DNA from: Anaerolineae bacterium
GTDB lineage: Bacteria > Chloroflexota > Anaerolineae > B4-G1 > SLSP01
DNA length: 60,705 bases
Reading direction: 5' to 3'
NCBI GenBank assembly: GCA_025454475.1
Contig: JALOOJ010000003.1
Span: forward strand, 1-60,705
Part shown: positions 9,097 to 32,178 of the stretch, piece after piece
Layout of the letters: every line of letters begins with the position of its first letter
Position numbering within the stretch: position 1 is the stretch's first letter
Notes under the pieces: model-generated
Told to the model about the DNA's origin: nothing
The model's database searches: none
The model's input: the letters and a program-made list of their open reading frames with translations, nothing else
Translations under genes and position numbers: made by a program

Positions 9097-9118
9097 ATAC
9101 GATCATCGAGGAGGTGCT

Positions 9119-10013: not shown

Positions 10014-11171
10014 TCAGCAGATGCGCGGAAGCTGGGCGCCCGCCAGCATCTGGATGATGCGCCGTGCACCGTAAGGTGTCTCCAGCGTCACACGCCCGCG
10101 GTGAGCCGCCGTCACCGTACCGATGGCTGCCGCGTCTCGCCCAAGCGGGTGTTCGCGCAGGATCGCCAGAGCCCTGTCGGTGCTCGCGCCCTCGACCGCG
10201 ATGACGACCTTGCCCTCATTCGCCGCGTAGAGCGGGTCCAGGCCGAGGAACTCGCACGCCGCCCGAACCTCCTCACGGACCGGGATCTGCGCTTCGATGA
10301 GCTCGATCCCGACCCCCGCGGCCTCAGCCCACTCGTTGAGCACCGTGGCAAGACCCCCACGCGTGGCATCGCGCATCCAATGGACCTGAGTGGGTAGCCC
10401 AGTCAGGAGCGCTTCGATGAGGGCGTTGAGGGGAGCGGTGTCGCTCTCAAGGCTGGATCGAAAGGTGAGCCCTTCCCGCTGGATCATAACCGCCAGCCCG
10501 TGGTCGCCGACGGTGCCGTTGACCAGGAGCGCGTCGCCTGGTTGCAGCCTCTGGGGGCCGAGCTCAAGGCCGGGCGGGATCACCCCAACCCCTGCGGTGT
10601 TGATGAACAGGCCGTCCGCCGCGCCACGACCAACCACCTTGGTGTCACCCGTCACGATCCGCACACCTGCTTCGCGCGCGGTCGTGGCCATACTGACGAC
10701 GATGCGCTCCAGATCCTCGATGGGCAGACCCTCCTCAAGGATAAACCCCGCGGTCAGGTAGAGTGGGCGTGCGCCCATCACAGCGAGATCGTTGACCGTC
10801 CCGCACACAGCCAGCTCGCCTATGTCGCCACCCGGGAAGAAGAGCGGCTGTACGACGTACGAGTCCGTGGTGAGGGCCACCCGGCCTTCTGGCAGCTCGT
10901 CGAGAATCGCGGAGTCGGCCATCTCGTTCAGAAGCGGATTGGCGAACGCACGCACAAAGACATCCTGTATGAGCTCGTGGCTCAGCTCCCCTCCGCTGCC
11001 ATGCGCAAGCAGGACGCGGAGTCGATGTTGGACGCCTGATGTTGGATGTCGGATGCCGGAAGCTGGAAGCCGAGTATCGGCGGCAGCCTGCAAGCTCTCG
11101 ATTACCCCATTCTCCGATTCCTGATTCCCCATTCTCCGATTCGCCTTTTCGCTCATTCGCTCACTCGCCAT
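10014..11171 (-). CDS. hypE: Hydrogenase maturation protein HypE with repeat-derived N-terminal extension (start uncertain: 11171, 11156 or 11132)
   Basis: LAHGSGG, TTDSYVV.PLFFPGGDIG.LAVCGTVNDLA, DATRGG, ANEGK, C-terminal QLPRIC. Confidence 0.95.
   Translation of the reverse strand: MASERMSEKANRRMGNQESENGVIESLQAAADTRLPASGIRHPTSGVQHRLRVLLAHGSGGELSHELIQDVFVRAFANPLLNEMADSAILDELPEGRVALTTDSYVVQPLFFPGGDIGELAVCGTVNDLAVMGARPLYLTAGFILEEGLPIEDLERIVVSMATTAREAGVRIVTGDTKVVGRGAADGLFINTAGVGVIPPGLELGPQRLQPGDALLVNGTVGDHGLAVMIQREGLTFRSSLESDTAPLNALIEALLTGLPTQVHWMRDATRGGLATVLNEWAEAAGVGIELIEAQIPVREEVRAACEFLGLDPLYAANEGKVVIAVEGASTDRALAILREHPLGRDAAAIGTVTAAHRGRVTLETPYGARRIIQMLAGAQLPRIC
11042..11169. repeat. Composite 7/8-mer micro-repeat element in the hypE 5' end
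   Basis: Heptamers TTGGATG TCGGATG CCGGAAG CTGGAAG (11042-11069), then (C/G)ATTC-core 7/8-mers and TTCGCTCA octamers (11105-11169). Confidence 0.85.
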
Positions 11172-12261
11172 ACTTGTAGAACGCAGCACACGCGCCCTCG
11201 GCGCTGACCATACAGGGGCCGATAGGATTACGCGGCGTGCAGACCCGCCGAAAGAGACCGCAGGCGCTCGGGGCGATCACACCGCGCAGCACCTCACCGC
11301 AGCGGCATCCCTTGGGCTCCGCGACCGACGCAACTTCCACGGGAAAGCGCAGCGCGGCATCGCGGTGCGCATAGGCAGTGTTTAGGGTGAGTCCACTGGT
11401 GGGAATCTCACCAAAGCCACGCCACGCAGCCGCACGCACATCGAACACCTGATCGAGCAGGCGCAGGGCCACAGGGTTGCCCCCTGGCTGGACGCTACGA
11501 GCATAGGTATTGAAGACGCCCGGCGCCTTGTCTGCGGCAGCATGGACCAGGGCCGCGATGGCGCTCAGCAGATCCAGCGGCTCGAAGCCGGCGACCGCAC
11601 ACGGGATACCGTAGTCTTCGGGCAGGAAAGCCCAGGCATCGCTGCCGATGACGGCGCTGACGTGCCCAGGGCCGATGATCCCATCGAGCGCGACCTCTCC
11701 CGCATCGAGTATCGCGCGCATCGCCGGAGGCGTGAGCTTGTGCAGGCTGAGTACACTGAAATTCGGGGTTCCTGCCCTCTCCGCCTGTAGCAGGGCGGCG
11801 GCCACCCCCGGAGCCGTCGTCTCAAAGCCCACGCCGAGGAAGATGACCTGCCGGTCGGGATTGGTCTGGGCTAGAGCCAGCGCATCCAGCGGCGAGTAGA
11901 TGACACGAACATCGGCCCCACCGGCGCTCAGCTGCTGGAGAGTTCCACGGCTGCCCGGCACGCGCACCATGTCGCCAAAGGTGGTGAGGATGACATCCGG
12001 TTGCGCGTCCGCAAGCGCCATCGCAACATCCAGATCACGCGATGCCGTCACGCACACTGGGCAACCGGGCCCCGAATGCAGCTCGACATCCCCCGCGAGC
12101 GTCTGGCGCAGGCCAAAGTGGAAGATCGCGTGCGTGTGCCCCCCGCAGAACTCCATCAAGCGCACCGGGCGGATGTCGGGGTGTGCGGCGACCTCGCGCT
12201 TGATCTGAGCGATCAACCGCCGCGCCAATGCCGGGTCGCGGAACTCATCAATGAGCTTCAT
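11161..12261 (-). CDS. hypD: Hydrogenase maturation protein HypD
   Basis: MEFCGGHTH, GPGCPVC, GFETTAP, GPGHVS, GFEP, PIGPCMVSAEGAC. Confidence 0.97.
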   Translation of the reverse strand: MKLIDEFRDPALARRLIAQIKREVAAHPDIRPVRLMEFCGGHTHAIFHFGLRQTLAGDVELHSGPGCPVCVTASRDLDVAMALADAQPDVILTTFGDMVRVPGSRGTLQQLSAGGADVRVIYSPLDALALAQTNPDRQVIFLGVGFETTAPGVAAALLQAERAGTPNFSVLSLHKLTPPAMRAILDAGEVALDGIIGPGHVSAVIGSDAWAFLPEDYGIPCAVAGFEPLDLLSAIAALVHAAADKAPGVFNTYARSVQPGGNPVALRLLDQVFDVRAAAWRGFGEIPTSGLTLNTAYAHRDAALRFPVEVASVAEPKGCRCGEVLRGVIAPSACGLFRRVCTPRNPIGPCMVSAEGACAAFYKYGE

Positions 12262-12548
12262 TCCCGTGGTCGGCTCCCGGATGCCCGCAGTGCGGCCTCC
12301 TCGGCCTCCATAGCTTCCTGGATTCGTGCCAACTCGGCAAAGGCTTCCAGGGACGCCTCAGCTTCCTCAGTATCCATCAACGAGATCGCATAGCCCGTAT
12401 GCACGAGCACATAGTCGCCGACCTTTGCTTCAGGGGTCATGATGAGACTGACTTGCCGGGTGACGCCACCAAGCTCGACGGTCGCCAGGATTCCGATCCC
12501 GCCATCCGGGCTGATCTCGATTATCTGAGTGGGTATCGCTAGACACAT
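12258..12548 (-). CDS. hypC: Hydrogenase chaperone HypC
   Basis: N-terminal MCLAIP; VGDYVLVHTGYAI. Confidence 0.96.
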   Translation of the reverse strand: MCLAIPTQIIEISPDGGIGILATVELGGVTRQVSLIMTPEAKVGDYVLVHTGYAISLMDTEEAEASLEAFAELARIQEAMEAEEAALRASGSRPRE

Positions 12549-12556
12549 AGGAACTC

Positions 12557-15193: not shown

Positions 15194-15861
15194 CCCCGCC
15201 CCAACTTATCCTCCAGCCACGCGATCCAATCCCCTATCCCTTCACCGGTCTTGGCTGAGACAACGATGATAGGGATGGTGGGGTTGAGGCCATGTACCAG
15301 TTCACGGAAGGTGTCGACCTCGAAGTCCAGGTAAGGCAGCAGATCCGACTTGGTCACCACGACCAGGTCGACGGCCTCGAAGATCGCAGGATACTTGTAG
15401 GGTTTGTCATGCCCCTCGGGCACACTGATCAAGCCGACGTTGAAGTCCTGCCCCAGGTCGAAGGAGACCGGACAGATCAAGTTACCGACGTTCTCGACCA
15501 GGACCAAGTCAAGGTCCTCCAAGGGAAGGGCCTGCACTGCATGGCGAATCATAGGCGCGTCGAGATGACAGGCGCCACCAGTGTTGATCTGCACGACTGG
15601 CGTGCCCGTCGTGGCAATCTTGTCGGCGTCGATTTGGGATGCGACATCGCCTTCGATAACGCCGAGCCTGTGCCCGGCTAATGCCGCGATGGTAGCCATG
15701 AGCAGCGTCGTCTTCCCCGCGCCTGGGGAGGCCATAATGTTGAAGACCTTGACGTCATGCGACCTGAACTGCACTCGGTTGTCGGCGGCGACCTCCTCAT
15801 TGGCAGTCAACAACCGCTCGACGACAGGCACACGATTTGAGATGGCTTGGTTGTCTGACAT
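15190..15861 (-). CDS. hypB: Hydrogenase nickel incorporation GTPase HypB
   Basis: ASPGAGKTTL, VIEGD, QINTGGACHLDA, ENVGNLICP, KYP, TKSDL, VSAKTGEG. Confidence 0.96.
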   Translation of the reverse strand: MSDNQAISNRVPVVERLLTANEEVAADNRVQFRSHDVKVFNIMASPGAGKTTLLMATIAALAGHRLGVIEGDVASQIDADKIATTGTPVVQINTGGACHLDAPMIRHAVQALPLEDLDLVLVENVGNLICPVSFDLGQDFNVGLISVPEGHDKPYKYPAIFEAVDLVVVTKSDLLPYLDFEVDTFRELVHGLNPTIPIIVVSAKTGEGIGDWIAWLEDKLGRG

Positions 15862-15885
15862 GGGTGTTACCTCCTGGGCCTCAGA

Positions 15886-16230
15886 TCACGAGGTGATCTC
15901 GATACTCTCGACGTAGAACTCTTTTCCGGCAACGACATCACCGCCCAACGCCTGGCACGATGGACAATGCCAATCCTGTCCATCAGGCTCGAACTCCTGT
16001 CCGCACTTCCGGCAACGGAATCGGATCCTGATCCGCTCGAAATGCAGGGACGCGCCCTCCGCGATGGTGTTTGGCGTGAGAAGGTCGAAGTAGAACTGGA
16101 TCGAGTCATCGATGAAGCTGCTCAACTCGCCGATCACAAGATGGATGTCGGTGACCTTCTTGGCTCCCCCACGCTCGGCGTGGTCCTTGACGATGCGGAG
16201 GATATCCTCCGTAACAGCCATCTCATGCAT
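15886..16230 (-). CDS. hypA: Hydrogenase nickel metallochaperone HypA
   Basis: MHEMAV start; FRCRKC and CPSC Zn motifs; GKEFYVESIE. Confidence 0.96.
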   Translation of the reverse strand: MHEMAVTEDILRIVKDHAERGGAKKVTDIHLVIGELSSFIDDSIQFYFDLLTPNTIAEGASLHFERIRIRFRCRKCGQEFEPDGQDWHCPSCQALGGDVVAGKEFYVESIEITS

Positions 16231-16789
16231 GGCTGGACTCCTGTACTGGCGTTCTAGGCCGCACTGCAGGCGCTCCTGAGAGCCCCAGGATGCGGTCTAC
16301 AGCAGGATCGACCAGCTCCGCAGTCTCAGCCGACAGACCCTGGCCGAAGTCAAAATCGTGGCCCAACAGGGACAAGAGAATTGCGCGCGGCGCCTTGTCG
16401 TAGAGATGCATCGTCAAGGCCAGCACGGTTGACGGGTGAGTCTGGTGATAGACGAAGGGCGCCCGATAGGCAACCTCGAGGCTCTCCTCATGGATCGATT
16501 CGGGGATACCCGATGCGACATGGGCATCAACGAAGATCACCAGGTCGTAGTGTTGCAGATCCTCGGCAAGTTCAGGAACCAGTTGGTGAAGGACAACCGT
16601 ATCAATGGGGTGGCCCAAATCCTCAAAGCCATCATCCATCTCATCCAGAGGAGGGCGTCCCAGCCGTTCGCGCAGAACGTTGACGACGAAGCGGGCGACG
16701 CCATCGTCGCGGCGGTAGAGGTTGCCAAAACCAGCGACCAGAGTGCGTCTATCTGTTTTGTCTAGAGACTCGATCAAATGTTTCCTCAA
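16223..16789 (-). CDS. Hydrogenase maturation endopeptidase (HoxW/HyaD-like); start may be TTG 16777
   Basis: LVAGFGNLYRRDDGVA, HQLVPELAEDL, VIFVDA, HQTHP; located between hoxH and hypA. Confidence 0.88.
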   Translation of the reverse strand: MRKHLIESLDKTDRRTLVAGFGNLYRRDDGVARFVVNVLRERLGRPPLDEMDDGFEDLGHPIDTVVLHQLVPELAEDLQHYDLVIFVDAHVASGIPESIHEESLEVAYRAPFVYHQTHPSTVLALTMHLYDKAPRAILLSLLGHDFDFGQGLSAETAELVDPAVDRILGLSGAPAVRPRTPVQESSHA

Positions 16790-17020: not shown

Positions 17021-17071
17021 TTGTCGCGTTACCTTGGCCTTTGAAGTGGGCCCGCGCCCAATCACGTGGCG

Positions 17072-18505
17072 CTAGTCGCGACGCAACGTGTCCAGGACCT
17101 CGCCATCCGGCCCCACCAACTCGATGTGTAAAGGCATCTGACCCATCGCGTGAGTCGAGCAGGAGAGGCACGGGTCATGGGCGCGGATTGCGCCCTCGAC
17201 ACGGTTCAGCATCCCTTCCTGGAGGTGGTTGCCATCTACGTAACGCCTGGCTACCATATTCACCGAATGATTCATCGCCCAGGCATTCCCGGCTGTCGCC
17301 ACGATCATATTGACTTTGGTGATCACGCCATTGTCATCGGTCCAGTAGTGATGGAACAGCGTACCACGCGGCGCCTCCAGAACGCCAACACCCTCGCCCG
17401 TGATCTGCCCGACCGGGTTGGTCACATCGTTGCCGAGGATATCGGGGTCGTCCATGAGTTCTCTCACCCGCTCAAGGGCGTAGACCGTCTCGATCAGTCG
17501 CGCATAGTGATAGTAGAGCGTTCCCTCGACTGGCTTCCCACCGTTAAGCGACTTCCAGATCTTCATCTCGCTCTGTGCGATCGGGGTGCTTATGTGACTC
17601 GCGGTGTTGAGGCGACCCAAAGGGCCAACGCGATAGACGCCGTCGGGATAGCCCCGCTTCTTGTAAAAAGGCGCCTTCAGATAGGTGTAATTGTTGACAT
17701 GCTCGCCAATGTAGTTGAGGTAGTCACTAGGATCAAACTCCTCAAGAAACGCGCCGTCAGAGTCCACCATCCGCAGATTGCCATGATAGAGCTCCAAGGC
17801 ACCATCGGCCTGAACCAGGCCCATATAGCCGCTGGGGAACACAGCGAACTCGTTGACCATCTCCGCGTGACCCATTGCCCAGTCCTTGAAGAACTCAAGG
17901 CCAACCTGAGTCGTAGCGATGTGCCGATCGAGCTCGCTCAGGATCCACTCGCGGTCCGCAGCGAGCAGCGGCTTGGTCACACCGCCGGGCACGCCGAAGA
18001 TCGGATGCACACGGCGCTCACCCAACAGCTTGATGATCTTCTGACCATAGGCACGGAGCTGCACAGCCTTCACTGCCAGATCCGGGTTCGCAGCGACGAT
18101 GCCACCGACGTGGCGAATCTTCGGATCTGCATCCCAACCCAACACAAAGTCCGGGCCGGCAAGCTCGAAGAAATGCATCCCGTGTGACTGGATGACCTGC
18201 CCCATATGCATCAGGTCACGCAGCTTGTGCGCAGTCGGCGTTGGGACGGTGCCAGCAACCACGTCACAGGCTTTCGTAGACGCCAGGTGGTGGCTAACGG
18301 GGCAGATGCCACACGTCCGGGGCGTGATTTGGGGCATTTCGTAGAACATCCGCCCCTCGCTGAACTTCTCAAACCCGCGGAATTGCTCAACATGAAACAG
18401 GGAATCCGCGACCTTTCCCTGATCGTCAAGGTAAATCGTGATCTTCGCATGACCCTCAATACGAGTCACCGGAGAGATTGTGATCTTCTGCGCGCTAACT
18501 GCCAT
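17072..18505 (-). CDS. hoxH: [NiFe] hydrogenase large subunit, group 3d (HoxH-like)
   Basis: VTRIEGH; L1 PRTCGICPVSH; EAPRGTLFHHY; L2 DPCLSCSTH followed by a 25-aa cleavable extension AMGQMPL... Confidence 0.92.
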   Translation of the reverse strand: MAVSAQKITISPVTRIEGHAKITIYLDDQGKVADSLFHVEQFRGFEKFSEGRMFYEMPQITPRTCGICPVSHHLASTKACDVVAGTVPTPTAHKLRDLMHMGQVIQSHGMHFFELAGPDFVLGWDADPKIRHVGGIVAANPDLAVKAVQLRAYGQKIIKLLGERRVHPIFGVPGGVTKPLLAADREWILSELDRHIATTQVGLEFFKDWAMGHAEMVNEFAVFPSGYMGLVQADGALELYHGNLRMVDSDGAFLEEFDPSDYLNYIGEHVNNYTYLKAPFYKKRGYPDGVYRVGPLGRLNTASHISTPIAQSEMKIWKSLNGGKPVEGTLYYHYARLIETVYALERVRELMDDPDILGNDVTNPVGQITGEGVGVLEAPRGTLFHHYWTDDNGVITKVNMIVATAGNAWAMNHSVNMVARRYVDGNHLQEGMLNRVEGAIRAHDPCLSCSTHAMGQMPLHIELVGPDGEVLDTLRRD

Positions 18506-18510
18506 ATTGG

Positions 18511-19068
18511 TTACCCTCCATCACTTCCGTACTTCAACACATTACCTTCCAGCTTGGGCATCCGGCCTTCCAACAATTCGGTCAAAACAAACCAGATGGC
18601 GTCGGCTGAGGGGGGGCAACCCGGCAGGTATATATCCACAGGAACCACATCGCCCACACCTGAGACCTGATCTGTAAGCGGCGTTAGCTCCTCATGGACA
18701 GGAATCTCACCATCGACGGTGCTCTCCGACTCGATATAGCCGCGGCGCAGGACCTCCTCCTTGTCGAAGAAGTTGCGCATCGTGCAGATCCCGCCAGTCA
18801 CCGCACAGTCACCCATAGCGATCAGGATCTTGCACCGCTCGCGCATCAGCTTGGCCTCGTGGATTTCGTCCTCGTTGCCAATTCCGCCAGTCAGGATCCC
18901 AACAACAACCCCCTCCTCCGGTGGATGCTTCATGTCAGTAATCGGCGAAGAACTGAGCTCAACATACTTCAGAAGCTCAACGATCCTCTCGTCGATATCC
19001 AGAAAGGACATGTGGCAGCCAGCACATGACTCAAGCCACTGTGTCGCAACAGTAATCTTCTCACCCAT
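18511..19068 (-). CDS. hoxY: [NiFe] hydrogenase small subunit (HoxY-like, single proximal cluster)
   Basis: WLESCAGCHMSFLD, MGDCAVTGG, YLPGCPP. Confidence 0.9.
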   Translation of the reverse strand: MGEKITVATQWLESCAGCHMSFLDIDERIVELLKYVELSSSPITDMKHPPEEGVVVGILTGGIGNEDEIHEAKLMRERCKILIAMGDCAVTGGICTMRNFFDKEEVLRRGYIESESTVDGEIPVHEELTPLTDQVSGVGDVVPVDIYLPGCPPSADAIWFVLTELLEGRMPKLEGNVLKYGSDGG

Positions 19069-19110
19069 AGCAATACTCCTGCCTTCCCGGCGCTTCGTAG
19101 ACCGCCGCCA

Positions 19111-20811
19111 TTATAACATAGCGGCAAGAGCTGAGAGCACTTCCGCGTCGTCCCGCACCGCTGCGGGTTTGGGCAGAACCTCTGCCACAGGTTTCACGAC
19201 ACCGGCATAGTCGGTAGTGTGACCCGTCCGTTCATACCACACCGGCGTCGGTAGAACGACATCGGCTCCCTCGACCAGTGGAGACAAGTAACTGGCCTGG
19301 ACTACGGTGAAGGCACCGTCGACCTTCGTCGTCAGGGCCTGATCCTCGCTCTGCTCGCCCAGTAGGAAGAACCGGGTCTGCGCACCGTTGGGCTCGGCAT
19401 GCTTCAGGCCCGCAGCGGTAGCGCCCCGCTCATTTCGCCCAGGGCTCAGTGCAAGCGTATAGAGCCGATCACCGAGATGGCGGAAGGCAGCTATCACCCT
19501 GCTCTTGATCCCCACGCTGTAGACCAACACGATCTTTTTGGCATCAGCCGCAGCCTTGGCAACCTGGTCGGCATCCGCATATGACACCGTCATTGTCGCC
19601 CGCTTAGTCAGGCTGTTCTCTGTATCAGCAATGACTGCAACGGTCGCACCATGATCCGCCGCCCGCTGAATAAAGTAACCCACCACGCGTTGATAATCGA
19701 GCGGCTGTGCGCCGGCGACTACGATGAAGTCGGCATCGAGAATGTCCGCGAGTTTCCCAGTCGTGCCATATCCCAACACCGGCGCAACGGGCTCCAACAG
19801 CCCCGCCTCTCCCTTCGCCTTGGCGAAGAGCCCCGCAAAGGCCTCGAGTGCCTCGTTGGTGGTAGCGCAGGTGGTCAAGCCCTGGACGCCGCCCGCCTTG
19901 AACCTGGCAGCCACCGTGCTCAGCGCCTCGTCCCATCCGGCCTCGACCAGCTTGCCGTCCTTGCGGACCAGCGGGCTGGTGACTCGTTTGCGCTCCTCAT
20001 ACAACGGGGCGAAGCGCCCGTCAACACAGAGGAGGCCGTCGTTGGGCTCGGAGCCCCAGATGCCATCGACACGAAGTAGACGGTTGTAGCGCGTCACTAC
20101 GTCCAGAGCACATCCAACGCTGCACTGCATGCAGGTCGTCTCCGTATGAACGACATCTTTCTCGCGACCGCCATAGGCGCTGCGAGCATCGATCAGGGCT
20201 CCGGTAGGACAGACCTGCAAACACGTCCCGCACTCCACACAGCTTGACTCACCGAACGGCACATCCAGATCAGCCATGATCATAGAATCCGCACCGCGCG
20301 CGCGCACATCAAGGGTGTGATTGGCCACAATCTCCGAGCATGCTCGAACACAACGCGTGCAGAGGATGCAGCGGTTGTGGTCCATGATGAAGTACTTGCG
20401 AGACGCATCGACGCTCAGCTTCTGGTAAGGCCGCGGATAGGTGAAGTGATCCAGCCCATAGCGATAGGCAGCATCCTGCAACTCGCAGTCGCCGCTCATC
20501 TGACAGAACATGCAGTAGTGGTTGCGTTCGGAGAAGAGGAGTTCCAGAACGAACTTCCGCACATCGACCGCAGCCGTCGTTTCGGTCTGAACCTCCATAC
20601 CATCTGCGATGGGGCAGGTACAGGCCGTCTGCAGGCCACGCATGCCTTTGACCTCAACCACGCACATGCGGCAGGCGCCCCATGCCGATAATGCTGGATG
20701 GGAGCAGAGAACAGGAATATCAACGCCCGCAGCCTGTGCGGCTTCCAAAATCGTCTGACCGCTCAGCCCCGTTACGGGCTGATTGTTGATCGTGAGTCGC
20801 ACCTCGCTCAT
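19111..20811 (-). CDS. Extended HoxU / NuoG-HydA-like iron-sulfur subunit (no H-cluster, no Mo site)
   Basis: AAGGAGG RBS; [2Fe-2S] LC..GACRMC..AC; HYCMFC...C; CILCTRCVRAC and CVECGTCLQVCPTGAL; extra CMQCSVGC...C; shortened molybdopterin-oxidoreductase-like C-terminus. Confidence 0.88.
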   Translation of the reverse strand: MSEVRLTINNQPVTGLSGQTILEAAQAAGVDIPVLCSHPALSAWGACRMCVVEVKGMRGLQTACTCPIADGMEVQTETTAAVDVRKFVLELLFSERNHYCMFCQMSGDCELQDAAYRYGLDHFTYPRPYQKLSVDASRKYFIMDHNRCILCTRCVRACSEIVANHTLDVRARGADSMIMADLDVPFGESSCVECGTCLQVCPTGALIDARSAYGGREKDVVHTETTCMQCSVGCALDVVTRYNRLLRVDGIWGSEPNDGLLCVDGRFAPLYEERKRVTSPLVRKDGKLVEAGWDEALSTVAARFKAGGVQGLTTCATTNEALEAFAGLFAKAKGEAGLLEPVAPVLGYGTTGKLADILDADFIVVAGAQPLDYQRVVGYFIQRAADHGATVAVIADTENSLTKRATMTVSYADADQVAKAAADAKKIVLVYSVGIKSRVIAAFRHLGDRLYTLALSPGRNERGATAAGLKHAEPNGAQTRFFLLGEQSEDQALTTKVDGAFTVVQASYLSPLVEGADVVLPTPVWYERTGHTTDYAGVVKPVAEVLPKPAAVRDDAEVLSALAAML

Positions 20812-20915
20812 AAGTGCTTGCCTCCTTGGGCACATTCTATAGGTTTGGCTAACCCTCAGGCAGTCGGCGCGGGTCCGGGATGATAGCCGGGCCGCGGACC
20901 GTCCGTCGAGGCGTG

Positions 20916-22499
20916 CTAGTCCCGCAATCGGGACTCGAATTCGCTGCGGAAATACTGCAACCCAGTGAGGATCGGAACTGGGGCAGCTTGCCCCAGGCCA
21001 CAGAAAGAAGCCTGCTGGACGTAGGTTGCGATCTCCTCCAGCCGTTCCAGATCGGCGCGGCGTGCCATGCCCTTACGCAGACGGTCCAGCGCCTCAAGCA
21101 TCTGCGCTGTGCCGACACGGCAGGGCGTGCATTTGCCACACGACTCGGTCTTGAAGAAACGGACCAGGACGTAGGCCAAGTCGACAATGTCGGTGTCCTC
21201 GTCACAGACAAGCAACGCGCCACTGCCAAGGCCCACACCCTTCTCCCGCATTGACGCGAAATCCATCGGCACATCCAGGAGCTCCGCCGGGATGATCGTG
21301 CCGGACGACCCACCTGTCTGCGCCGCCTTGAAGGCCTTACCGCCCTTCATGCCACCGCCGTAGATGCCGATGATCTCCCGCAGTGTTGTGCCCATGGGCG
21401 CCTCTACCAGGCCACTGAGCGCCACATCGCCCAACATCGTATAGACTTTCGTCCCCGGACTCCGCTCCGTCCCGATCGCTCGGAACCAGTCGGCGCCATT
21501 GAGAATGATCGGGGCGATGTTCGCCAGGGTCTCGACGTTGTTCACGACGGTAGGTTTGCCACGAAATCCGTATACCGTGGGGTACGGTGGACGGATACGC
21601 GGTATTCCACGCTCGCCCTCCAGGCTGTTGAGCAGCGCCGTCTCCTCGCCGCAGACGTAAGCGCCGGCGCCGGCGTGAACATGCACGTGGAACGAAAAGC
21701 TCGTGCCCATAATGTTGTCGCCAAGGAGGTTTAGCTCCTCAGCCGCGGTGATGGCGTGGTTGAGGATGTCCTTGGCCATCGCGTATTCGCCACGGATGTA
21801 GATCCAACCCTCGCTCGCTCCCACTGCGTAGCCTGCTAGCGCCATGCCTTCCAGCACCGCATGGGGATCACCTTCGACGATCAGCCGATCCTTGAAGGTG
21901 CCCGGCTCCGACTCATCCGCATTACACACAATGTACCGCGGCGACTCGGGCTGCTGCGCCACAAAGGTCCACTTCAGACCGGTGGGAAACCCGGCGCCGC
22001 CACGACCCTGAAGCCCGGAGGATTTGACGGTGTCAAGCACCTCGCCGGGCGTCATGCTCGTAAGCGCCTTGCCTAGCGCGAAGTAGCCATCATAAGCAAT
22101 ATACTCATCAATGCTGTAGGGATCGATCGTGCCGGCGCGTTTGAGCACCACACGCTTTTGGGCATAGAGCGTATCCTCTGCCACGCCGAGCGTATCGATC
22201 TCAGCAGACGCCACCTCCGCAGACACCAAGAGATGCTCAACCTTACGTCCTTTGTAGAGGTGTTCGCTGACGATAGTGGCGCCGGTCTCAGGCGACACCG
22301 GGCCATAGACGATGCCCTCTGGATAGACAACTACGACAGGCAGCACATCCGTACGGTTGACGCGGCCCGTATACCCTACCCGTACCTCATCCTCAAGTCC
22401 GTAGAAGGCGAGCTCGGCCTCGATCGCAAGACGGGTGTCCTCGGCGCCTCGCGACAAACTGATGGGATCTCCAGACACCAGAACCGTCGAGCGGATCAT
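20916..22499 (-). CDS. NuoF/HoxF-like flavoprotein, non-bifurcating-type signature
   Basis: [55 protein letters not shown]; no C-terminal ferredoxin domain. Confidence 0.92.
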   Translation of the reverse strand: MIRSTVLVSGDPISLSRGAEDTRLAIEAELAFYGLEDEVRVGYTGRVNRTDVLPVVVVYPEGIVYGPVSPETGATIVSEHLYKGRKVEHLLVSAEVASAEIDTLGVAEDTLYAQKRVVLKRAGTIDPYSIDEYIAYDGYFALGKALTSMTPGEVLDTVKSSGLQGRGGAGFPTGLKWTFVAQQPESPRYIVCNADESEPGTFKDRLIVEGDPHAVLEGMALAGYAVGASEGWIYIRGEYAMAKDILNHAITAAEELNLLGDNIMGTSFSFHVHVHAGAGAYVCGEETALLNSLEGERGIPRIRPPYPTVYGFRGKPTVVNNVETLANIAPIILNGADWFRAIGTERSPGTKVYTMLGDVALSGLVEAPMGTTLREIIGIYGGGMKGGKAFKAAQTGGSSGTIIPAELLDVPMDFASMREKGVGLGSGALLVCDEDTDIVDLAYVLVRFFKTESCGKCTPCRVGTAQMLEALDRLRKGMARRADLERLEEIATYVQQASFCGLGQAAPVPILTGLQYFRSEFESRLRD

Positions 22500-22981
22500 A
22501 CAATGCCTCCCGATCTTTCCTCGCCTCGGTAGCGAGCGATGATCTCACGGACCTTCTGCGGGTCCAGGTTGCCATGAATGTCGCTATCGACCATCATCAC
22601 CGGTCCCACTGCACAGGCGCCGATGCAACTGGTAGTCAGCAAGGACCATTCGCCGTCCAGGGAAGTCGCACCGAAAGGAATTCCAAGCTCGTGCTCCAGT
22701 GCCTCCCAGACTTGCTGCCCTCCCACAACATGGCACGGGGCATCTTGGCAGAAACGCACTACATGCTTACCGAGAGGCTCGAGGCTAATCAAACTGTAGA
22801 AGCTCGCGACGCTGTAGACCTTGCTCAGCGGCAAGCTCAAACGGCTGGCAATCCTCTGCATCTGCTCTCGGCTCAGATGTCCACTTACCTCGTTGACCTC
22901 TCTCAGAATCTCAACAAGAGCCTCCTGGTCAGCACCGTGGACATCAATGATGCCGTCGGTTGTGGCTAAGACGTCTTCCAT
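22496..22981 (-). CDS. NuoE/HoxE-like [2Fe-2S] subunit
   Basis: VASFYS, FCQDAPCHVVG, SCIGACAVGP. Confidence 0.92.
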   Translation of the reverse strand: MEDVLATTDGIIDVHGADQEALVEILREVNEVSGHLSREQMQRIASRLSLPLSKVYSVASFYSLISLEPLGKHVVRFCQDAPCHVVGGQQVWEALEHELGIPFGATSLDGEWSLLTTSCIGACAVGPVMMVDSDIHGNLDPQKVREIIARYRGEERSGGIV

Positions 22982-23046
22982 ACGTACCCCTTTCTCTGGC
23001 AGTCTCTAGTGCCCTGCGACCCATTCGTGGATGCTGGCCTCTGAGT

Positions 23047-23073
23047 TTCCGATTCGCTGATTCTCAGATTCCC
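23047..23073. repeat. Short GATTC-core micro-repeat copy immediately after the hydB-like stop codon
   Basis: TTCCGATTCGCTGATTCTCAGATTCCC. Confidence 0.7.
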
Positions 23074-23076
23074 TTA

Positions 23077-24837
23077 TTACTCGACGCTGACAGCATTGAC
23101 CGGGCAGACCTGGGCACAAATGCCGCAGCGGATGCAGATCTCAGGATCGATCACGTGCGGCTGCCGCGCTATCCCGGTGATGGCGTTGACGGGGCAGTTG
23201 CGCGCGCAGCGCGTGCAGCCGATGCAGGTCTCCGGGTCGATTTTGTACTCGATGAGTGCTCGGCAGACCTTCGCGGGGCACCTCTTGTCGTAGATGTGGG
23301 CCTCGTACTCCTCGCGGAAGTTCTCGATCATGCTTAGGACGGGATTGGGGGCTCCTTGCCCCAGCCCACAGAGTGAGCCAATCTTTACAGACCGTCCCAG
23401 AGTCTCCAGAGCTTCGATGTCGCCCGGCTTACCCTTGCCCGCGCAGATGGCCTCGAGGATGTCCAACATCTTGCGCGTTCCCACGCGGCACGGAACGCAC
23501 TTACCACAGGACTCCTCCTGCGCAAACTCCATGAAGAACCGGGCCATATCGACCATACAGGTCTCTTCATCCATGACGATGAAACCACCAGAGCCCATCG
23601 CGGAGCCCACCGAAGCCAGCGACTCGTAATCCACCGGCATATCAAGGTGTTTCTCGGGAATACAGCCGCCAAGAGGCCCACCGGTCTGGACCGCCTTGAA
23701 TGCTTTGTCATTCAGGACACCGCCGCCGACATCGTACACGATCTCGCGGACCGTGATGCCGAGCGGCACCTCGATCAGACCAGTGCGCTTGACCTTACCG
23801 GCAATGGCGAAGGTCTTGGTACCCTTGCTCTTCTCGGTACCCATTGCGGCGAACCACGCCCCGCCGTTCAGCAGAATCTGGGGGACGTTAGCGTAGGTCT
23901 CGACATTGTTGATATTCGTGGGCTTGCCCCAGAGACCCGACGTCGCCGGGAAGGGAGGACGCGTACGGGGCTGTCCACGGTTACCCTGAACCGACTCCAT
24001 CAGTGCGGTCTCCTCGCCACAGACGAAGGCGCCGGCACCCATCCGGACCTCGAGATCAAAGCAGAAACCGGTCCCGAAGATATCCTTGCCCAGTAGGCCA
24101 TACTCGCGGGCCTGCTCAATCGCAACACGCAGAGTACGAATGGCGATAGGGTACTCCGCCCGGACGTAGAGGTAGCCCTGGGTGGCCCCGATGACGTAGG
24201 CGGCGATCGCCATTCCCTCGAGGACCGAGTGCGGATCACCCTCGAGCACACGGCGATTCATAAACGCGCCGGGATCGCCCTCATCGCCGTTGCAGACCAC
24301 GTATTTCTGATCACCTGGCGCGTTGCGGGCGAAGGTCCATTTCATCCAGGCGGGGAAACCCGCGCCTCCCCGGCCGCGCAATGCCGAGGTCTTGAGTTCT
24401 GCGAGTACACCATCCGGCGTCATCTCGGTCAAGACCTTGCCAAGCGCAGCGTAACCATCCTGAGCGATATAGTCGTCAATGCTCTCCGGGTTTATGACGC
24501 CAACGTTTCGCAGGACGACCCGCACTTCCTTGGTCGAAGGCTCGTCCAAAGGCTCAACGGCCTGCTCTTGCACCATCAGGTTCTGGACAGGGCGTCCTTT
24601 CAGCAGGTGTTCTGTAGCCACCAGACGCGCATTGTCCGGAGTGAGGTCCCGATAGTGGACGCCGTCAGGATAGACGATCGCCTCGATGCTTGGCGTCGCT
24701 ACCGTCAAATCCGTTGCCGCCAGAACCTCAATCTCATTGCTGAGGCCCAAGAGGCCAATCTCATCCAACAGCGCTACCGTGACAGGCTGCGCCTGCTGGG
24801 GATCTCCGCTGATGATCACATGTGCGCGATATGCCAT
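23077..24837 (-). CDS. HydB/HndC-like flavoprotein, bifurcating-type signature
   Basis: [62 protein letters not shown]-terminal 2x[4Fe-4S] [12 protein letters not shown] / [12 protein letters not shown]. Confidence 0.93.
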
Positions 24838-24870
24838 AGGTCCTCCTCAGACGTGGCAGAGGCTCGTCTC

Positions 24871-25230
24871 TTACTTCCTGACTTGCCACTTGGCGACAGG
24901 CACACCGCCGACTACGTGTCCATCGATGAGCTCCGGCACGCGTCCGACGTCGATCTTGCCATAGGTGACCATGTCCGATTCGCCAACCTGGATCTGGACA
25001 ATCGGCTCGAACTCACACAGACCGATGCATCCGGTCTGGGTCACAACCACGTCCGTAATGGACCGACTCTCCAGTTCACTTAGGATCGCGGTCATGGTGT
25101 CTCGCGCGCCGGCCGCAATGCCACACGTGCCCATCGCCACGACGACCCGCGCCCGCGAGCCCTCGCCGGACAGCTTCCGCCGCTGGAGCGCTCGCTCCTT
25201 GATTTTCTGCAGTTCCTCCAAGCTTTTCAT
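24871..25230 (-). CDS. Thioredoxin-like [2Fe-2S] ferredoxin (HydD/HndB-like)
   Basis: VAMGTCGIAAGA and QTGCIGLCEFEP. Confidence 0.88.
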   Translation of the reverse strand: MKSLEELQKIKERALQRRKLSGEGSRARVVVAMGTCGIAAGARDTMTAILSELESRSITDVVVTQTGCIGLCEFEPIVQIQVGESDMVTYGKIDVGRVPELIDGHVVGGVPVAKWQVRK

Positions 25231-25268
25231 GTCGGATGACCTCCTACCTCGAGTTAGTGGATCTACGT

Positions 25269-25835
25269 TCAGGGCAAAGCTTCACTCCCGATGGAAGCTA
25301 GCCCCTCGCCAATAGTGCCGCGCACAAAGGCAAAAACCTCCGGGTCCGAGAGCGAGACCTCAGGTCCCAGAATCTCGCGAAACTCTCGCGTGTCGAGCAC
25401 GAAGGTCCTATCTGCAACCTTGTGCTGGTAGACTAGATCAATCATAGGATTACCCACGATGATGCACAGTAGCGTCCCGTTCAGATCCCCAAGAGGGGGG
25501 CGATCGATGTGGCTGAGTTGCAGCGTCGCTCGGGTCGTGGTTCCCTGTCCCAATGCAGAGGTGATCTCGAACGTTCCACCGCACATTTCAGCAGTCTGCT
25601 TGAGAAAGGGGATGCCGAGGCCGACCTTGCGCGTCGTCCGCGTCGTAACCCACGGGTCTGCGATATGCCGAAGCATATCGGCATCCATTCCCCGACCATC
25701 ATCCCCGATGGCGATCGACAACTGGTCGTCTACCGGATTCTCATCGATGTCAATGTGCAGCAACGTTGCACTTGCGGTAACGCTGTTCTCAGCGATATCG
25801 AGAATATGCTGAGAGAGGTCCCGGAAAACGGTCAT
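25269..25835 (-). CDS. Stand-alone HATPase_c (histidine-kinase-like ATP-binding) protein
   Basis: HILDIAENS (N box), DDGRGM (G1), TTRTTRKVGLGIPF (G2), GQGT; no transmitter His domain. Confidence 0.88.
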   Translation of the reverse strand: MTVFRDLSQHILDIAENSVTASATLLHIDIDENPVDDQLSIAIGDDGRGMDADMLRHIADPWVTTRTTRKVGLGIPFLKQTAEMCGGTFEITSALGQGTTTRATLQLSHIDRPPLGDLNGTLLCIIVGNPMIDLVYQHKVADRTFVLDTREFREILGPEVSLSDPEVFAFVRGTIGEGLASIGSEALP

Positions 25836-26335
25836 TCGTACTTACGCAGGGCCTTCGCCACGTCCTGGGGCTGCACGCGTCCGACCACGTCGTCGTCGAT
25901 CATGACCACCGGAGCCTGCGAACACGCGCCAACACAGCGGCAGGTCTCCAATGTGAACCGGTTGTCCTCCGTAGTCTCACCCACTTCTACGCCAAGGACC
26001 TGCTGCAGTTTTTCGACCAGCGAAGGCCCTCCACGTACGTAGCAGGCCGTGCCGAGGCAAATACTTACCTTGTGACGCCCAATCGGAGCCATGCGGAAGA
26101 ACGAGTAGAAGGTCAGCACACCGTAGATGTGGCTCAGAGGGATCCCCATGCTATCGGCGATATAGCGCTGCATAGGCGGAGACACGTATCCCAGCCGCTC
26201 CTGGGTCAGGGTCAGGACCACCATCGTCGCGCCAGGTCGGCCGCGGTTCTCCTCAAGGATCCGGTCCAGTTCCACCTTCTCCTCTGATGAAAGCTCCAGA
26301 ATTGTTGGGGTCGCTCGTTCTGTCGCTAAAGTCAT
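25832..26335 (-). CDS. NuoE-like [2Fe-2S] subunit (HydC/HndA-like)
   Basis: GAGGTG RBS before ATG 26335; TFYSFF, ICLGTACYVRG, RCVGACSQAP. Confidence 0.92.
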   Translation of the reverse strand: MTLATERATPTILELSSEEKVELDRILEENRGRPGATMVVLTLTQERLGYVSPPMQRYIADSMGIPLSHIYGVLTFYSFFRMAPIGRHKVSICLGTACYVRGGPSLVEKLQQVLGVEVGETTEDNRFTLETCRCVGACSQAPVVMIDDDVVGRVQPQDVAKALRKYE

Positions 26336-26603: not shown

Positions 26604-27350
26604 CTACGGGACGTAGGCGCGCTGCCCACTCTCCCCGCACAGGGCCTGCCTCAAAGCGCCAACCGATGGCGTGTCGTCCAGTTGGAAGATAGTCATCGTC
26701 GTCCCCATCCACTCCAGCCAATGCGCGTCTGAGCTGCTGATGAGGGTCAGGGCCGGCGGCAGAGTTGAGAACTGTCGTCGCGCCTCGCTTGGGCGCATAT
26801 TTGGTGAGAGCTCGGCCGCATCGGCCTCCAAGTCAGGGGGCCAGATACCCAACGTCCGCATCAACCCATTGTGCTGCCGATCGATGTGCGCCGGGATGAC
26901 CAGGCCCCCAAGGGCGTGCACCTCTCGCGCAGCATCCTCCAGTCCCATGGTCGTCGGCGCCTGCAGTAATCGCGGATCCTCCCCAACAAAGTTGCCCTCC
27001 CGGTCCACGACGAACTGCGGGCCGAAGCGGTCGACATCATTGAGCAGCGGCGGAATCGTGGCGTCTACCGCCCGCTGCCATGCCTCTAAGGCAAGCTGTG
27101 AATCGAAGATACACAGCAGATCGACCTCCTCGCGCGTCTGCAGCTCCATCCCTACGAGAACGGTCAATCCCGTAGCCGTTGCGGCCTCGCGCACCGCCAA
27201 CGCATTGCCGGTGGCATTGTGATCGGTAATGGCAATGATGTCGAGACCCCTGGACAGAGCTTCGTCCACGATCAGGGGCGGGATCATCTCCACCTCGGCG
27301 CACGCCGACAGCGCCGTGTGAATGTGCAGATCGGCCCGGTACTCCCGCAT
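26604..27350 (-). CDS. PHP domain (polymerase/histidinol phosphatase-like) protein
   Basis: DLHIHT..SAC, ITDHN, GMELQT.EEV, IPAHIDR, SSDAH. Confidence 0.9.
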   Translation of the reverse strand: MREYRADLHIHTALSACAEVEMIPPLIVDEALSRGLDIIAITDHNATGNALAVREAATATGLTVLVGMELQTREEVDLLCIFDSQLALEAWQRAVDATIPPLLNDVDRFGPQFVVDREGNFVGEDPRLLQAPTTMGLEDAAREVHALGGLVIPAHIDRQHNGLMRTLGIWPPDLEADAAELSPNMRPSEARRQFSTLPPALTLISSSDAHWLEWMGTTMTIFQLDDTPSVGALRQALCGESGQRAYVP

Positions 27351-27748: not shown

Positions 27749-28726
27749 TCAGCCCGCATCCTGCTCGCCGATCTCTTGGGGCGAGACGCTGAAGGTCATG
27801 AGCACGCGTGTTCCAACGCCAACAGCCGACCAGATACTCAGCTTATCCGTACAGCGCTCAATGTTGGTGAGCCCCATACCGGCACCGAAGCCCATTTCCC
27901 GAACCTCTGGCGTTGCCGTTGACCAGCCCGGCTGGCGGGCAAGGCCCACATCGGCAATGCCGGGACCTGAGTCCTGGGCAACGATCGTGATCTCGTTGGG
28001 CTGAATGTCCGCGAGGATCATCCCGCCATTGTGCGTGTGAATGATGAGGTTGACCTCGGCCTCGTACGTGGCAATCGCTACGCGGCGCGCCAACTGAGGC
28101 GATGCGCCGATCTGAAGTAGCGCCCTCTTGATTTTCGCGGAGGCGTCGCCACCCCGGGCAAAGTCGCCCTTCTCGACACGATAGCGCAGTTGCAGGCTGG
28201 TGCTCTCAGATTCCAGGGCATCGAAGAACCGCTGTGGGCGTGCTTGGTAGGCCTCCGCCTCCGTGTAGAGCTCCTGAAGCGCATCAAGGAGAGCCAGTGT
28301 GATATCGCCGCGCGTGACCATACCGACAAGTTCATGCCGGGCGTTCAGGACGGGCATACGTCCAATGCCGGTTTTCTCGAAGCGGCGCAGAGCCTCCATG
28401 ACCGACTCCTGCGCATGGGCGGTCACGAGGTTCGAGCTTGTCATGAACTCCCGTATTGGAGCATCCAACCGCTGGACCTCAAGCGCGTGGATCAGGTCCT
28501 CGATGCTGACGATGCCCACAAGCGCCTGATCCTCCACCACCGGGAGGCCCGAGATACGGTGTTCCCGCAGGAGTTCCTTCAACTGTTGCATCGTCGCGTC
28601 CGGGGGGAGCGTGAAGACTGAGGCCGTCATCACCCTTGAGACCGGCATTTCGCGCACGAGCTCATGGATCTTGGTGAGTGCACCCCCTCTTCCCATAGAC
28701 CCCAGAAGTGCGAACTGTCGTTTCAT
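27749..28726 (-). CDS. CBS-pair fused to RsbT/SpoIIAB-like Ser/Thr kinase (anti-sigma-type) domain
   Basis: Two CBS motifs (RISGLPVV...GIVS; GIGRMPV...GMVT) then AIATYEAEVN, DSGPGI, GFGAGMGL.NI; start may be 28696. Confidence 0.87.
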   Translation of the reverse strand: MKRQFALLGSMGRGGALTKIHELVREMPVSRVMTASVFTLPPDATMQQLKELLREHRISGLPVVEDQALVGIVSIEDLIHALEVQRLDAPIREFMTSSNLVTAHAQESVMEALRRFEKTGIGRMPVLNARHELVGMVTRGDITLALLDALQELYTEAEAYQARPQRFFDALESESTSLQLRYRVEKGDFARGGDASAKIKRALLQIGASPQLARRVAIATYEAEVNLIIHTHNGGMILADIQPNEITIVAQDSGPGIADVGLARQPGWSTATPEVREMGFGAGMGLTNIERCTDKLSIWSAVGVGTRVLMTFSVSPQEIGEQDAG

Positions 28727-32175: not shown

Positions 32176-32178
32176 GCG

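Follow-up and report, generated by a model that had tools for sequence, protein, structure and literature searches.

Why would an operon for one hydrogenase encode two flavin modules? This question is raised by a 60,705-nucleotide stretch of DNA from an Anaerolineae bacterium (contig JALOOJ010000003.1 of assembly GCA_025454475.1; hereafter, the window). A hydrogenase operon on its minus strand (16223-26335) encodes a [NiFe] small and large subunit (HydS and HydL), a NuoG-like scaffold (HydA), and two pairs of NuoE- and NuoF-like subunits, which we call HydC and HydB (NuoE#1 and NuoF#1) and HydC' and HydB' (NuoE#2 and NuoF#2). An earlier reading of the window, made from the sequence alone, had proposed that the first pair is of the electron-bifurcating type, that the second is a non-bifurcating NuoEF, and that both share one scaffold and one catalytic pair. 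By our comparisons, the operon appears to be the orthologue of the operon for the electron-bifurcating [NiFe] hydrogenase HydABCSL of Acetomicrobium mobile, with the HydC'B' pair inserted. With only moderate confidence, we propose that both modules would feed the same catalytic core: HydCB by confurcating NADH and ferredoxin, and HydC'B' with plain NADH.

The first flavin pair, the scaffold and the catalytic subunits

We compared each subunit to proteins of known structure. The best match for HydB is HydB of A. mobile (7t2r_B; 794 bits, with residues 3-583 aligned). HydB has the motif DEGDPGAFM (amino acids 185-193, nucleotides 24259-24285), which aligns to DEGDPGAFM in A. mobile. The AFM in this motif includes two residues of the flavin mononucleotide (FMN) and NADH domain that are specific to Bfu enzymes (A202 and M204 of A. 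mobile; PMC9304861). The site for the iron-sulfur (Fe-S) cluster B2 is kept as well, with GGPLGGC, EETC, and H..CPAKVC in HydB versus GGPSGGC, EDTC, and HIKDKRCPAKIC in A. mobile. (The B2 ligands in A. mobile are Cys476, His525, Cys531, and Cys536, and the criterion for B2 is three to four cysteines and one histidine; PMC8880783.) The C-terminal domain for clusters B3 and B4 has two CxxCxxCxxxCP motifs, at amino acids 538-549 and 568-579, and matches Fer4 families. Overall, the predicted cofactors of HydB are FMN, B1, the B2 site, and B3/B4. The B5 site is missing: in a residue-level alignment, there are no cysteines within residues 1-95 of HydB, the region in which the A. mobile protein carries VCRGTGC ... 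GCHGMC. The closest relatives of HydB also have a cysteine-free N-terminal thioredoxin (Trx)-like domain.

The other parts of a Bfu enzyme are present too. HydC belongs to PF01257 and has four cysteines for the C1 [2Fe-2S] cluster, as in BfuC. As in BfuA, the scaffold lacks a catalytic site, and it is accompanied by a group 3 [NiFe] pair. HydA is most similar to HydA of A. mobile (7t2r_A; 305 bits, residues 9-340), its cysteine and histidine patterns fit five Fe-S clusters, and its C-terminal part is truncated and molybdopterin-like. HydL matches HydL of A. mobile over its full length (7t2r_D; 578 bits), and the next matches are MvhA (401 bits) and HoxH of H. thermoluteolus (395 bits). It contains RTCGICPVSH and DPCLSCSTH, which are the NiFe-binding motifs L1 and L2, and a C-terminal tail that a protease could cleave. 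The scaffold and the catalytic pair had been labelled HoxU/NuoG-like and HoxYH in the sequence-only reading; they are closer to HydA, HydS, and HydL of A. mobile than to Hox.

The order of the A. mobile operon is hydC-hisK-hydD-hydB-hydA-hydS-hydL, and HisK and HydD are not in the purified pentamer (PMC8880783, PMC9304861). The window shares the backbone hydC-hisK-hydD-hydB ... hydA-hydS-hydL-protease with the operon for A. mobile NiFe-HydABCSL (PDB 7T2R/7T30; Feng et al. 2022, PMC8880783). Given this shared backbone and the best matches to 7t2r, we view the window's operon as the A. mobile operon with NuoE#2-NuoF#2 inserted between hydB and hydA. Besides this insertion and the lack of B5 cysteines in HydB, the window differs from A. 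mobile in having a shorter HydA (574 versus 692 amino acids, with only residues 9-340 aligned) and an upstream cassette of DRTGG, CBS-kinase, and PHP genes.

Accessory roles are likely for the HisK-like ATPase and for HydD. The three-cysteine pattern of HydD (36, 68, and 72) is found in 30 of the 32 homologues that we checked, from Anaerolineae, Thermotogae, and Clostridia. (HydD is kept next to the genes for the second pair even at loci where the gene for the first NuoF was lost: L012, L124, and L126 in our numbering.)

The second flavin pair

The best structural match for HydB' is also 7t2r_B (584 bits), followed by Nqo1 (416 bits) and two FdsB proteins (388 and 332 bits). HydB' is 47% identical to HydB, and HydC' is 34% identical to HydC. 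HydB' has DESEPGTFKD (amino acids 195-204, nucleotides 21888-21917), with TFK instead of AFM, and it has GGSSGT and EDTD in place of the cysteine-bearing motifs of B2. It ends at the position of residue 528 of A. mobile HydB, and it has no Fer4 domain and no B3/B4. The N-terminal Trx-like domain is kept but free of cysteines. HydB' retains the FMN and NADH motifs and the B1 cysteines (FCGLGQ is present; PF01512, 2.7e-48; PF10589, 3.8e-30). All of the motifs that the sequence-only reading had quoted for the two NuoFs are present, along with the C-terminal clusters of HydB and the absence of a ferredoxin domain from HydB'; for DEGDPGAFM and DESEPGTFKD, its nucleotide positions were about 6 nt off.

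Non-bifurcating subunits are recognized by a lack of the clusters B2-B5 and by the NuoF-type TFK at the FMN/NADH site, with FMN, the NADH site, and B1 (N3) kept (Losey et al. 2020). This is what we found in HydB': the ligands of B2-B5 are absent, TFK is present, and FMN, the NADH site, and B1/N3 are retained. By published criteria, HydB' is predicted to be of the non-bifurcating, NADH-only type (PMC9304861, PMC7311640, PMC11406978). Beta subunits without the extra clusters from the syntrophs S. wolfei and S. aciditrophicus are non-bifurcating and NADH-only, and they work below about 60 Pa of H2 (PMC7311640, PMC9304861). HydB' resembles these subunits, which come from syntrophs that operate at very low H2, in lacking both the extra clusters and the Bfu residues, which is a likeness of features. 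Also, in S. wolfei and S. aciditrophicus the catalytic subunit is [FeFe], and the flavin module is the sole one instead of lying beside a bifurcating one. The typing of the two NuoFs (AFM, B2, and B3/B4 versus TFK and no extra clusters) thus agrees with the sequence-only reading under the criteria of PMC9304861 and PMC7311640.

Both NuoFs keep the glutamate of CGEET, which we take to correspond to E183 of E. coli NuoF, a residue that presumably disfavors NADPH. The use of NADP, which had been suggested along with NAD, is not indicated.

Both NuoF types are old and constrained

We placed the two NuoFs in a phylogeny of 94 such sequences, with the complex-I NuoFs of Anaerolineae as the root; the tree is without HoxF, FdsB, and the HydB proteins of S. 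wolfei and S. aciditrophicus. All of the sequences of the HydB type (F1) form one clade, joined by HydB from A. mobile and from Clostridia, with a support of 100 in the Shimodaira-Hasegawa-like approximate likelihood ratio test (SH-aLRT). The 44 sequences of the HydB' type (F2) from Anaerolineae form the other clade (SH-aLRT 99). Every F1 has DEGDPGAFM, and every F2 has DE(S/G)EPGTFK and no C-terminal clusters. The two clades are deep and separate, and their branching is broadly congruent within Anaerolineae. This indicates that the F2 lineage is not a recent copy of the neighboring F1, and a recent tandem duplication is ruled out by the identity of just 47% together with the separate deep clades. 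The phylogeny that the sequence-only reading had asked for places NuoF#1 with Bfu, as expected. "Non-bifurcating NuoEF" describes the signature of the second module correctly but not its origin: this module appears to be an old sister clade of BfuB, and not a NuoEF of the complex-I or Hox type.

To compare constraint, we computed ratios of nonsynonymous to synonymous substitution (dN/dS) against four orthologous operons (L003, L004, L005, and L010). The values are 0.03-0.11 for F1 and 0.03-0.10 for F2, and they are rough because dS is saturated. Both NuoFs appear to be under equally strong purifying selection. A pseudogene or decay is ruled out by the low dN/dS of both.

The dual cassette in other genomes

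Genes of the NuoF2 type (at least 54% identity) are present in 35 of 401 evenly sampled Anaerolineae genomes, from 21 of 216 genera. Genes of the HydL type (at least 58% identity) are found in about 80 of the same genomes. Metagenomes contain over 120 protein clusters of the NuoF2 type (identity of at least 60%), with NuoF or HndC as their annotation. Among 29 short loci, 17 have the 3' end of an F1-type gene immediately upstream. The identical gene order occurs in many independent metagenome-assembled genomes (MAGs) and also on contigs as long as 478 to 885 kb. Neither chance nor a faulty assembly accounts for the arrangement.

The cassette occurs in several arrangements (Table 1). Its partner may be the [NiFe] core, a formate dehydrogenase, or the two together, so the unit to explain is the dual cassette and not one hydrogenase. 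Both pairs are retained whichever partner is present; it is the catalytic module that varies. The six-gene dual cassette appears to be an old, portable unit. The sequence-only reading had tied the module pair to one hydrogenase, but the pair is not confined to it: what follows the cassette is a formate dehydrogenase within the family of the window, both enzymes in Bellilinea, and candidates for an [FeFe]-type HydA in other phyla.

Table 1. Arrangements of the flavin cassette. E1, F1, E2, and F2 are NuoE and NuoF of the first and second type; HK, HisK-like ATPase; Fd, HydD; HydA-S-L, HydA, HydS, and HydL. Loci are in our numbering.
Form	Arrangement	Loci
a	The window's order	L003-L005, L010, L014, L121, L123, L125, L127, L129, L132
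b	Swapped order, E2-F2-E1-HK-Fd-F1-HydA-S-L	L017
c	Cassette, then 906-aa Mo-formate dehydrogenase; no hydrogenase	L006, L011, L013, L115, L116
d	E1-HK-Fd-F1-E2-F2-FocA-FdhA-HydA-S-L-protease	L083/L084 (Bellilinea sp.)
d	Hydrogenase, then FdhA	L128, L131
e	Single-module, F1-only operons, A. mobile-like	L144, L145, L147
f	F1 fused to GltD-like FAD/NADPH domain that replaces the ferredoxin domain	L133, L134 (with E2-F2); L143 (without); L141 (with a minimal 423-aa NuoF)
g	HydD-E2-F2-HydA-S-L with relic PHP and HATPase fragments; F1 orthologue lost	L124, L126
h	E2-F2-HydA-S-L behind ribosomal protein genes	L007-L009

Form (c), the cassette with FdhA only, is found in three sampled genomes from the window's own family. 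In one of these three (L117, on contig C57 of G293), the dual cassette is followed by FdhA, and at about 2480-2975 there are short fragments of a NuoG-like protein (50-55% identical) and a C-terminal fragment of HoxH (73%), right in front of the protease gene. These fragments appear to be the footprints of a deleted hydrogenase module.

The loci of form (h) might seem to prove that a genome can do without E1 and F1, but we rejected this idea. The same genomes contain an intact E1-HK-Fd-F1 (with an F1 orthologue that is 74-75% identical) and regulators on another contig, beside a large sensor kinase, so the operon is split. Genuine loss of F1 was seen only in genomes G037 and G184, where relic fragments remain. 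HydA is 571-576 amino acids long in both the dual loci (a) and the split loci (h), which suggests that there is no extra docking domain in HydA from dual-cassette operons.

Tandems of an AFM-type NuoF followed by a TFK-type NuoF also occur outside of Chloroflexota, in Caldisericota (where the first is of the AYM type), Verrucomicrobiota, Thermotogaceae, Bipolaricaulota, and Atribacteria. In Caldisericota and Verrucomicrobiota, the protein downstream of the tandem matches only the N-terminal ~220 residues of NuoG; our guess is that it is an [FeFe]-type HydA. The order in Thermotogaceae and Bipolaricaulota is E1-HK-Fd-HydA-S-L-protease-F1-E2-F2. In Atribacteria, FdhA and FocA are nearby.

Two other observations concern individual forms. 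The GltD-like fusion proteins of form (f) are 1028-1051 amino acids long (with Fer4_20 and Pyr_redox_2 domains) and are encoded upstream of HydA-S-L (L133:6136-9255, L134:6335-9475, L141:11211-14366, and L143:5277-8387). At L118 and L119 (in G155 and G038, from one family), the genes that come next on the strand of the dual cassette are sdhC, sdhD, sdhA, and sdhB, for a succinate dehydrogenase or fumarate reductase, and a YhhN gene; FdhA is 5 kb further downstream, and there is no adjacent scaffold gene.

The rest of the source genome

The assembly that includes the window is 95.7% complete, in 369 contigs. It has exactly two matches to Complex1_51K, and both are in the window's operon. In assembly-wide searches, we found no [FeFe] H-domain, no FdhA, and, outside of the operon, no further NuoE or second NuoG-like protein. 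We also looked for an alternative partner of the bifurcating module elsewhere in the genome and did not find one; a weak match on contig C72 is just a 4Fe-4S motif. The operon has one scaffold and one catalytic pair, as the sequence-only reading had stated. That reading had also allowed that the first module might work with an [FeFe] HydA or a formate dehydrogenase encoded elsewhere, and with no H-domain, FdhA, other NuoG-like protein, or third NuoF in this assembly, that case does not apply.

The genome does encode a second [NiFe] hydrogenase, on a 5.3-kb contig (C250, 2914-5197). It is about 30% identical to HydL, and its large subunit is apparently split over frames, which may reflect a frameshift, an assembly error, or a pseudogene. 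There are also NuoB-, NuoCD-, and NuoI-like genes on contigs C331 (about 30016-33178) and C141, and no NuoE, NuoF, or NuoG of the complex-I type in this genome. The other sampled genomes from the same order are mostly without any NuoF. Together, these observations suggest that electrons probably enter the complex I-like enzyme from a different donor.

Two proposed coupling modes on one core

Our analysis shows gene content, homology, the presence or absence of cofactor sites, conservation, selection, and the lack of another partner in this genome; that both modules dock, that they couple in two ways, and that the enzyme switches from one to the other is what we infer. In the mechanism we propose, each HydA would receive one of the pairs, and both pairs would use the N-terminal Fe-S domain of the scaffold as their docking site. 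HydCB would couple NADH and reduced ferredoxin to H2 (confurcation), or run in reverse, and this could proceed at higher product pressure. HydC'B' would couple NADH alone to H2. HydB' no longer has the B2 site, the signature residues of Bfu, or the B3/B4 domain by which ferredoxin is reduced, and it keeps FMN, B1, and, via HydC', C1. The NADH-only route would be feasible only at very low H2 pressure, as when fermenting Anaerolineae grow with methanogens. Cultured Anaerolineae are fermenters, and their growth is stimulated by hydrogenotrophic methanogens. In relatives, the cassette would act as a portable double unit for input or output, working likewise with a formate dehydrogenase or with both enzymes. 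The exchange of catalytic modules fits the similar potentials of H2 and formate, either of which can replace the other as a carrier between species. Each type can be the sole module of a HydA-S-L core: F1 in A. mobile and in the operons of form (e), and F2 in those of form (g).

Several observations weigh against this proposal. First, only one docking site is known on HydA, and for both modules to bind at once there would have to be a dimer or two populations of the enzyme. Second, the Bellilinea-type operons pair two catalytic modules with two flavin modules, so the ancestral state may have been one module per enzyme. Third, the operon is split in G401-G403, where E2-F2 stays with HydA-S-L and E1..F1 is alone. 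Fourth, HydB lacks the B5 cysteines, which are part of the invariant Bfu core according to Schut et al. 2022. Both B2 and B5 can be zinc sites, the minimal bifurcating site is B1-FMN-C1, and it is B3 and B4 that reduce ferredoxin (PMC11829005). As B5 may hold zinc and lies outside of the minimal site, its absence may not abolish bifurcation; we regard it as a departure from the family definition of 2022, and not clearly as a loss of function.

A stronger version of the proposal is that a (HydASL)2 core bears a HydCB arm and a HydC'B' arm at the same time. (The A. mobile enzyme is a dimer of pentamers.) A single particle would then change its coupling with the pressure of H2 or formate and with the ratio of NADH to ferredoxin, and the same double-arm cassette would plug into [NiFe], [FeFe], and formate dehydrogenase modules across several phyla. 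Control over the mode might then lie with the HisK-like ATPase, HydD, and the CBS-kinase/PHP cassette. We consider this version to be possible but doubtful.

The main alternative, which we find slightly less likely still, is that the operon descends from two enzymes that have remained separate. HydC'B' would then be the sole partner of HydASL, in a plain NADH-dependent [NiFe] hydrogenase, and HydC-HisK-HydD-HydB would come from a formate dehydrogenase and, in this genome without FdhA, would now work with no BfuA scaffold, for instance as a stand-alone NADH/ferredoxin module, or have an unrecognised partner. In favor of this are the gene order of Bellilinea and the genomes in the window's family with the cassette and FdhA only, among them L117 with its relics of NuoG and HoxH. 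Where the operon is split (G401-G403), it is E2-F2 that accompanies HydA-S-L, while E1..F1 is on another contig beside a sensor kinase; G037 and G184 lost E1 and F1 and kept HydD-E2-F2-HydA-S-L. A FocA gene also persists in the window. However, the purified A. mobile enzyme pairs exactly the F1-type HydB with HydASL, and several Anaerolineae operons have the F1 type alone directly upstream of HydA-S-L. In Bellilinea, the gene that adjoins FocA-FdhA is F2, not F1, and the cassettes that precede FdhA alone still keep both pairs. Finally, no other scaffold was found in the source genome, and F1 is as constrained as F2.

Another idea is that the two modules serve two nicotinamide pools, one using NAD(H) and the other NADP(H), so that H2 is linked to both or the complex is an Nfn-like transhydrogenase that works through HydA. 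Such cores do seem to have been wired repeatedly to a second nicotinamide site: a GltD-like FAD/NADPH module replaces the ferredoxin domain of F1 in the four loci of form (f), which are from sister lineages, and NfnABC and StnABC are Bfu enzymes. But the CGEET glutamate in both NuoFs, given the role of E183 in E. coli NuoF, speaks against NADPH, and we identified no NADP-specific feature in either. We think that two pools are improbable.

HydC'B' could instead provide the NADH input for the complex I-like enzyme of this genome (NuoB, NuoCD, and NuoI on C331, with no nuoEFG), as this genome and its order lack a NuoF of the complex-I type. This is very improbable. F2 is a relative of BfuB with a Trx-like N-terminal domain, and not of the Nqo1 type, and HydA or FdhA scaffolds invariably accompany it. 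Three to five NuoF genes are present in other dual-cassette genomes, although the open reading frames (ORFs) of complex-I size (about 420-450 amino acids) are not tied to those particular genomes.

Lastly, the idea that one pair is redundant or decaying, left behind by a recent duplication or when a module was lost, has nothing in its favor beyond the presence of two paralogues and can practically be dismissed, given that the NuoFs are 47% identical and in separate deep clades, that both ORFs are intact in dozens of species, and that dN/dS is 0.03-0.11 for both.

Relation to known enzymes

Every component of the operon comes from a known family, and the combination was not found described in the literature that we searched. 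Specifically, we found no description of a tandem of bifurcating and non-bifurcating modules in the full texts searched, including PMC9304861 and its supplement, PMC8880783, PMC11406978, PMC7311640, PMC11829005, and PMC3971608. This agrees with the sequence-only reading, which knew of no such enzyme. The survey of 2022 retrieved BfuB by a set of domains that includes the 4Fe-4S ferredoxin domain, so it would miss F2.

Besides A. mobile HydABCSL, the operon can be compared to the bidirectional NAD-linked [NiFe] hydrogenase HoxEFUYH, or soluble hydrogenase (group 3d), which likewise has a NuoE/NuoF/NuoG-like diaphorase and a small and a large [NiFe] subunit. E2-F2-HydA-S-L alone would have the same subunit logic. 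Unlike in HoxEFUYH, however, HydL is much more similar to HydL of A. mobile than to HoxH of H. thermoluteolus (578 versus 395 bits), HydA is 574 amino acids long with an added Mo-pterin-like part versus about 240 for HoxU, and HydB' is nearer to BfuB than to Nqo1. Matches to the NCBIfam models for HoxE and HoxU are below the cut-off.

Bifurcating formate dehydrogenases and hydrogenase-formate dehydrogenase complexes include HylABC-FdhF2 of Gottschalkia acidurici and Hyt-FdhA of Clostridium autoethanogenum (named here partly from PMC7311640). Similarly, relatives of the window's operon join the same flavin cassette to FdhA, or to FdhA and a hydrogenase. But the known complexes have one NuoF-type subunit, and the window has no FdhA. 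Nfn-Bfu and StnABC (PDB 9BOV, 8OH5, and 9N5U) combine a BfuBC core with a second nicotinamide site, and their B subunits match HydB strongly. Their second site is a GltD-like FAD domain in BfuA, and not a second NuoE/NuoF pair.

How Bfu-type enzymes achieve bifurcation with just one FMN is a matter of ongoing debate. Here, BC pairs of the bifurcating and the non-bifurcating type, deeply split and beside the same scaffold and catalytic subunits, offer a matched pair for asking which of AFM, B2, and B3/B4 confer coupling to ferredoxin. If our proposal is correct, it would explain how fermenting, methanogen-dependent Anaerolineae, which are abundant in digesters and sediments, dispose of NADH with or without reduced ferredoxin, and via H2 or formate. 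It would also affect metabolic predictions from genomes, as both genes are now annotated merely as NuoF or HndC.

Layout of the operon and its neighbors

By ORF calls and by Pfam and NCBIfam assignments, 10014-29531 is a single run of genes on the minus strand, in which the hydrogenase operon is followed by hypABFCDE (Table 2). The nine module genes, from hydC to hydL, are all intact and co-directional, as had been described. The gene junctions are tight: hydC and the HisK-like gene overlap by 4 nt, as do those for HydC' and HydB', and the remaining gaps are 5-95 nt. Within the run, we found no internal promoter- or terminator-like sites beyond the shuffled expectation, and there was no match to Rfam families in 16000-29600.

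Table 2. Features of the window around the hydrogenase operon.
Feature	Position	Strand	Evidence and remarks
Weak DRTGG ORFs	28809-29531 and 27369-27725	-	Flank the CBS-kinase gene; matches below cut-off
CBS-CBS and HATPase_c_2 kinase-like regulator	27749..28726	-	Pfam CBS 2.7e-29, HATPase_c_2 1.3e-8; upstream accessory cassette
PHP-domain protein	26604..27350	-	Pfam PHP 1.1e-8; last gene of the accessory cassette
HydC (NuoE#1), C1 [2Fe-2S]	25832..26335	-	PF01257 1.1e-47; Cys 147, 152, 188, 192
HisK-like ATPase	25269..25835	-	HATPase_c 8e-15; 4-nt overlap with hydC
HydD, 119-aa Trx-like [2Fe-2S] ferredoxin	24871..25230	-	NCBIfam only, fdxn_Clost 1.3e-8; conserved Cys 36, 68, 72
HydB (NuoF#1), 586 aa, bifurcating type (predicted)	23077..24837	-	Complex1_51K, NADH_4Fe-4S, 2 x Fer4
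HydC' (NuoE#2), [2Fe-2S]	22496..22981	-	PF01257 7.7e-45; four Cys 78, 83, 119, 123; 4-nt overlap with NuoF#2
HydB' (NuoF#2), 527 aa, non-bifurcating type (predicted)	20916..22499	-	Complex1_51K, NADH_4Fe-4S, no Fer4
HydA, NuoG-like scaffold, 574 aa	19111..20835	-	Pfam Fer2_4, NADH-G_4Fe-4S_3, Fer4_Nqo3, Molybdop_Fe4S4
HydS, [NiFe] small subunit	18511..19068	-	PF01058 4.8e-29; VhuG-like, 132 bits
HydL, [NiFe] large subunit	17072..18505	-	PF00374; best PDB match 7t2r_D
Hydrogenase maturation endopeptidase	16223..16789	-	TIGR00072 1e-15
hypA, hypB, hypF, hypC, hypD, hypE, [NiFe] maturation	10014..16230	-	Pfam HypA, cobW, HypF domains, HupF_HypC, HypD; AIRS and AIRS_C for HypE
FocA-type formate/nitrite transporter	8990..9988	+	PF01226 1.8e-76; just beyond hypE

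The longest ORF for HydC reaches 26497, and the start at 26335 is preceded by a ribosome-binding site (GAGGTGA). This start is the likely one, and the long ORF probably includes a 5' leader. A perfect TATAAT lies at about 26515-26520 (minus strand), in the gap at 26498-26603 and about 180 nt 5' of the probable start of hydC. Further upstream, the order DRTGG, CBS-kinase, DRTGG, PHP is annotated likewise in the Bellilinea loci (L083 and L084), and the PHP gene upstream of the flavin cassette is kept in most relatives.

On the other side, the FocA of the window is 62% identical to the FocA of Bellilinea, which is encoded between NuoF2 and FdhA, and a FocA homologue adjoins FdhA and hypA at L115, from the window's family. 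The window's FocA is probably the trace of a former connection with the formate dehydrogenase module of these relatives; it may be a leftover of a lost FdhA module, or it may serve another formate pathway. Upstream of FocA, 3061-9096 (plus strand) encodes a 2011-amino-acid protein that resembles bacterial alpha-2-macroglobulin (MG2, A2M, TED, bMG10, and Big_5 repeats).

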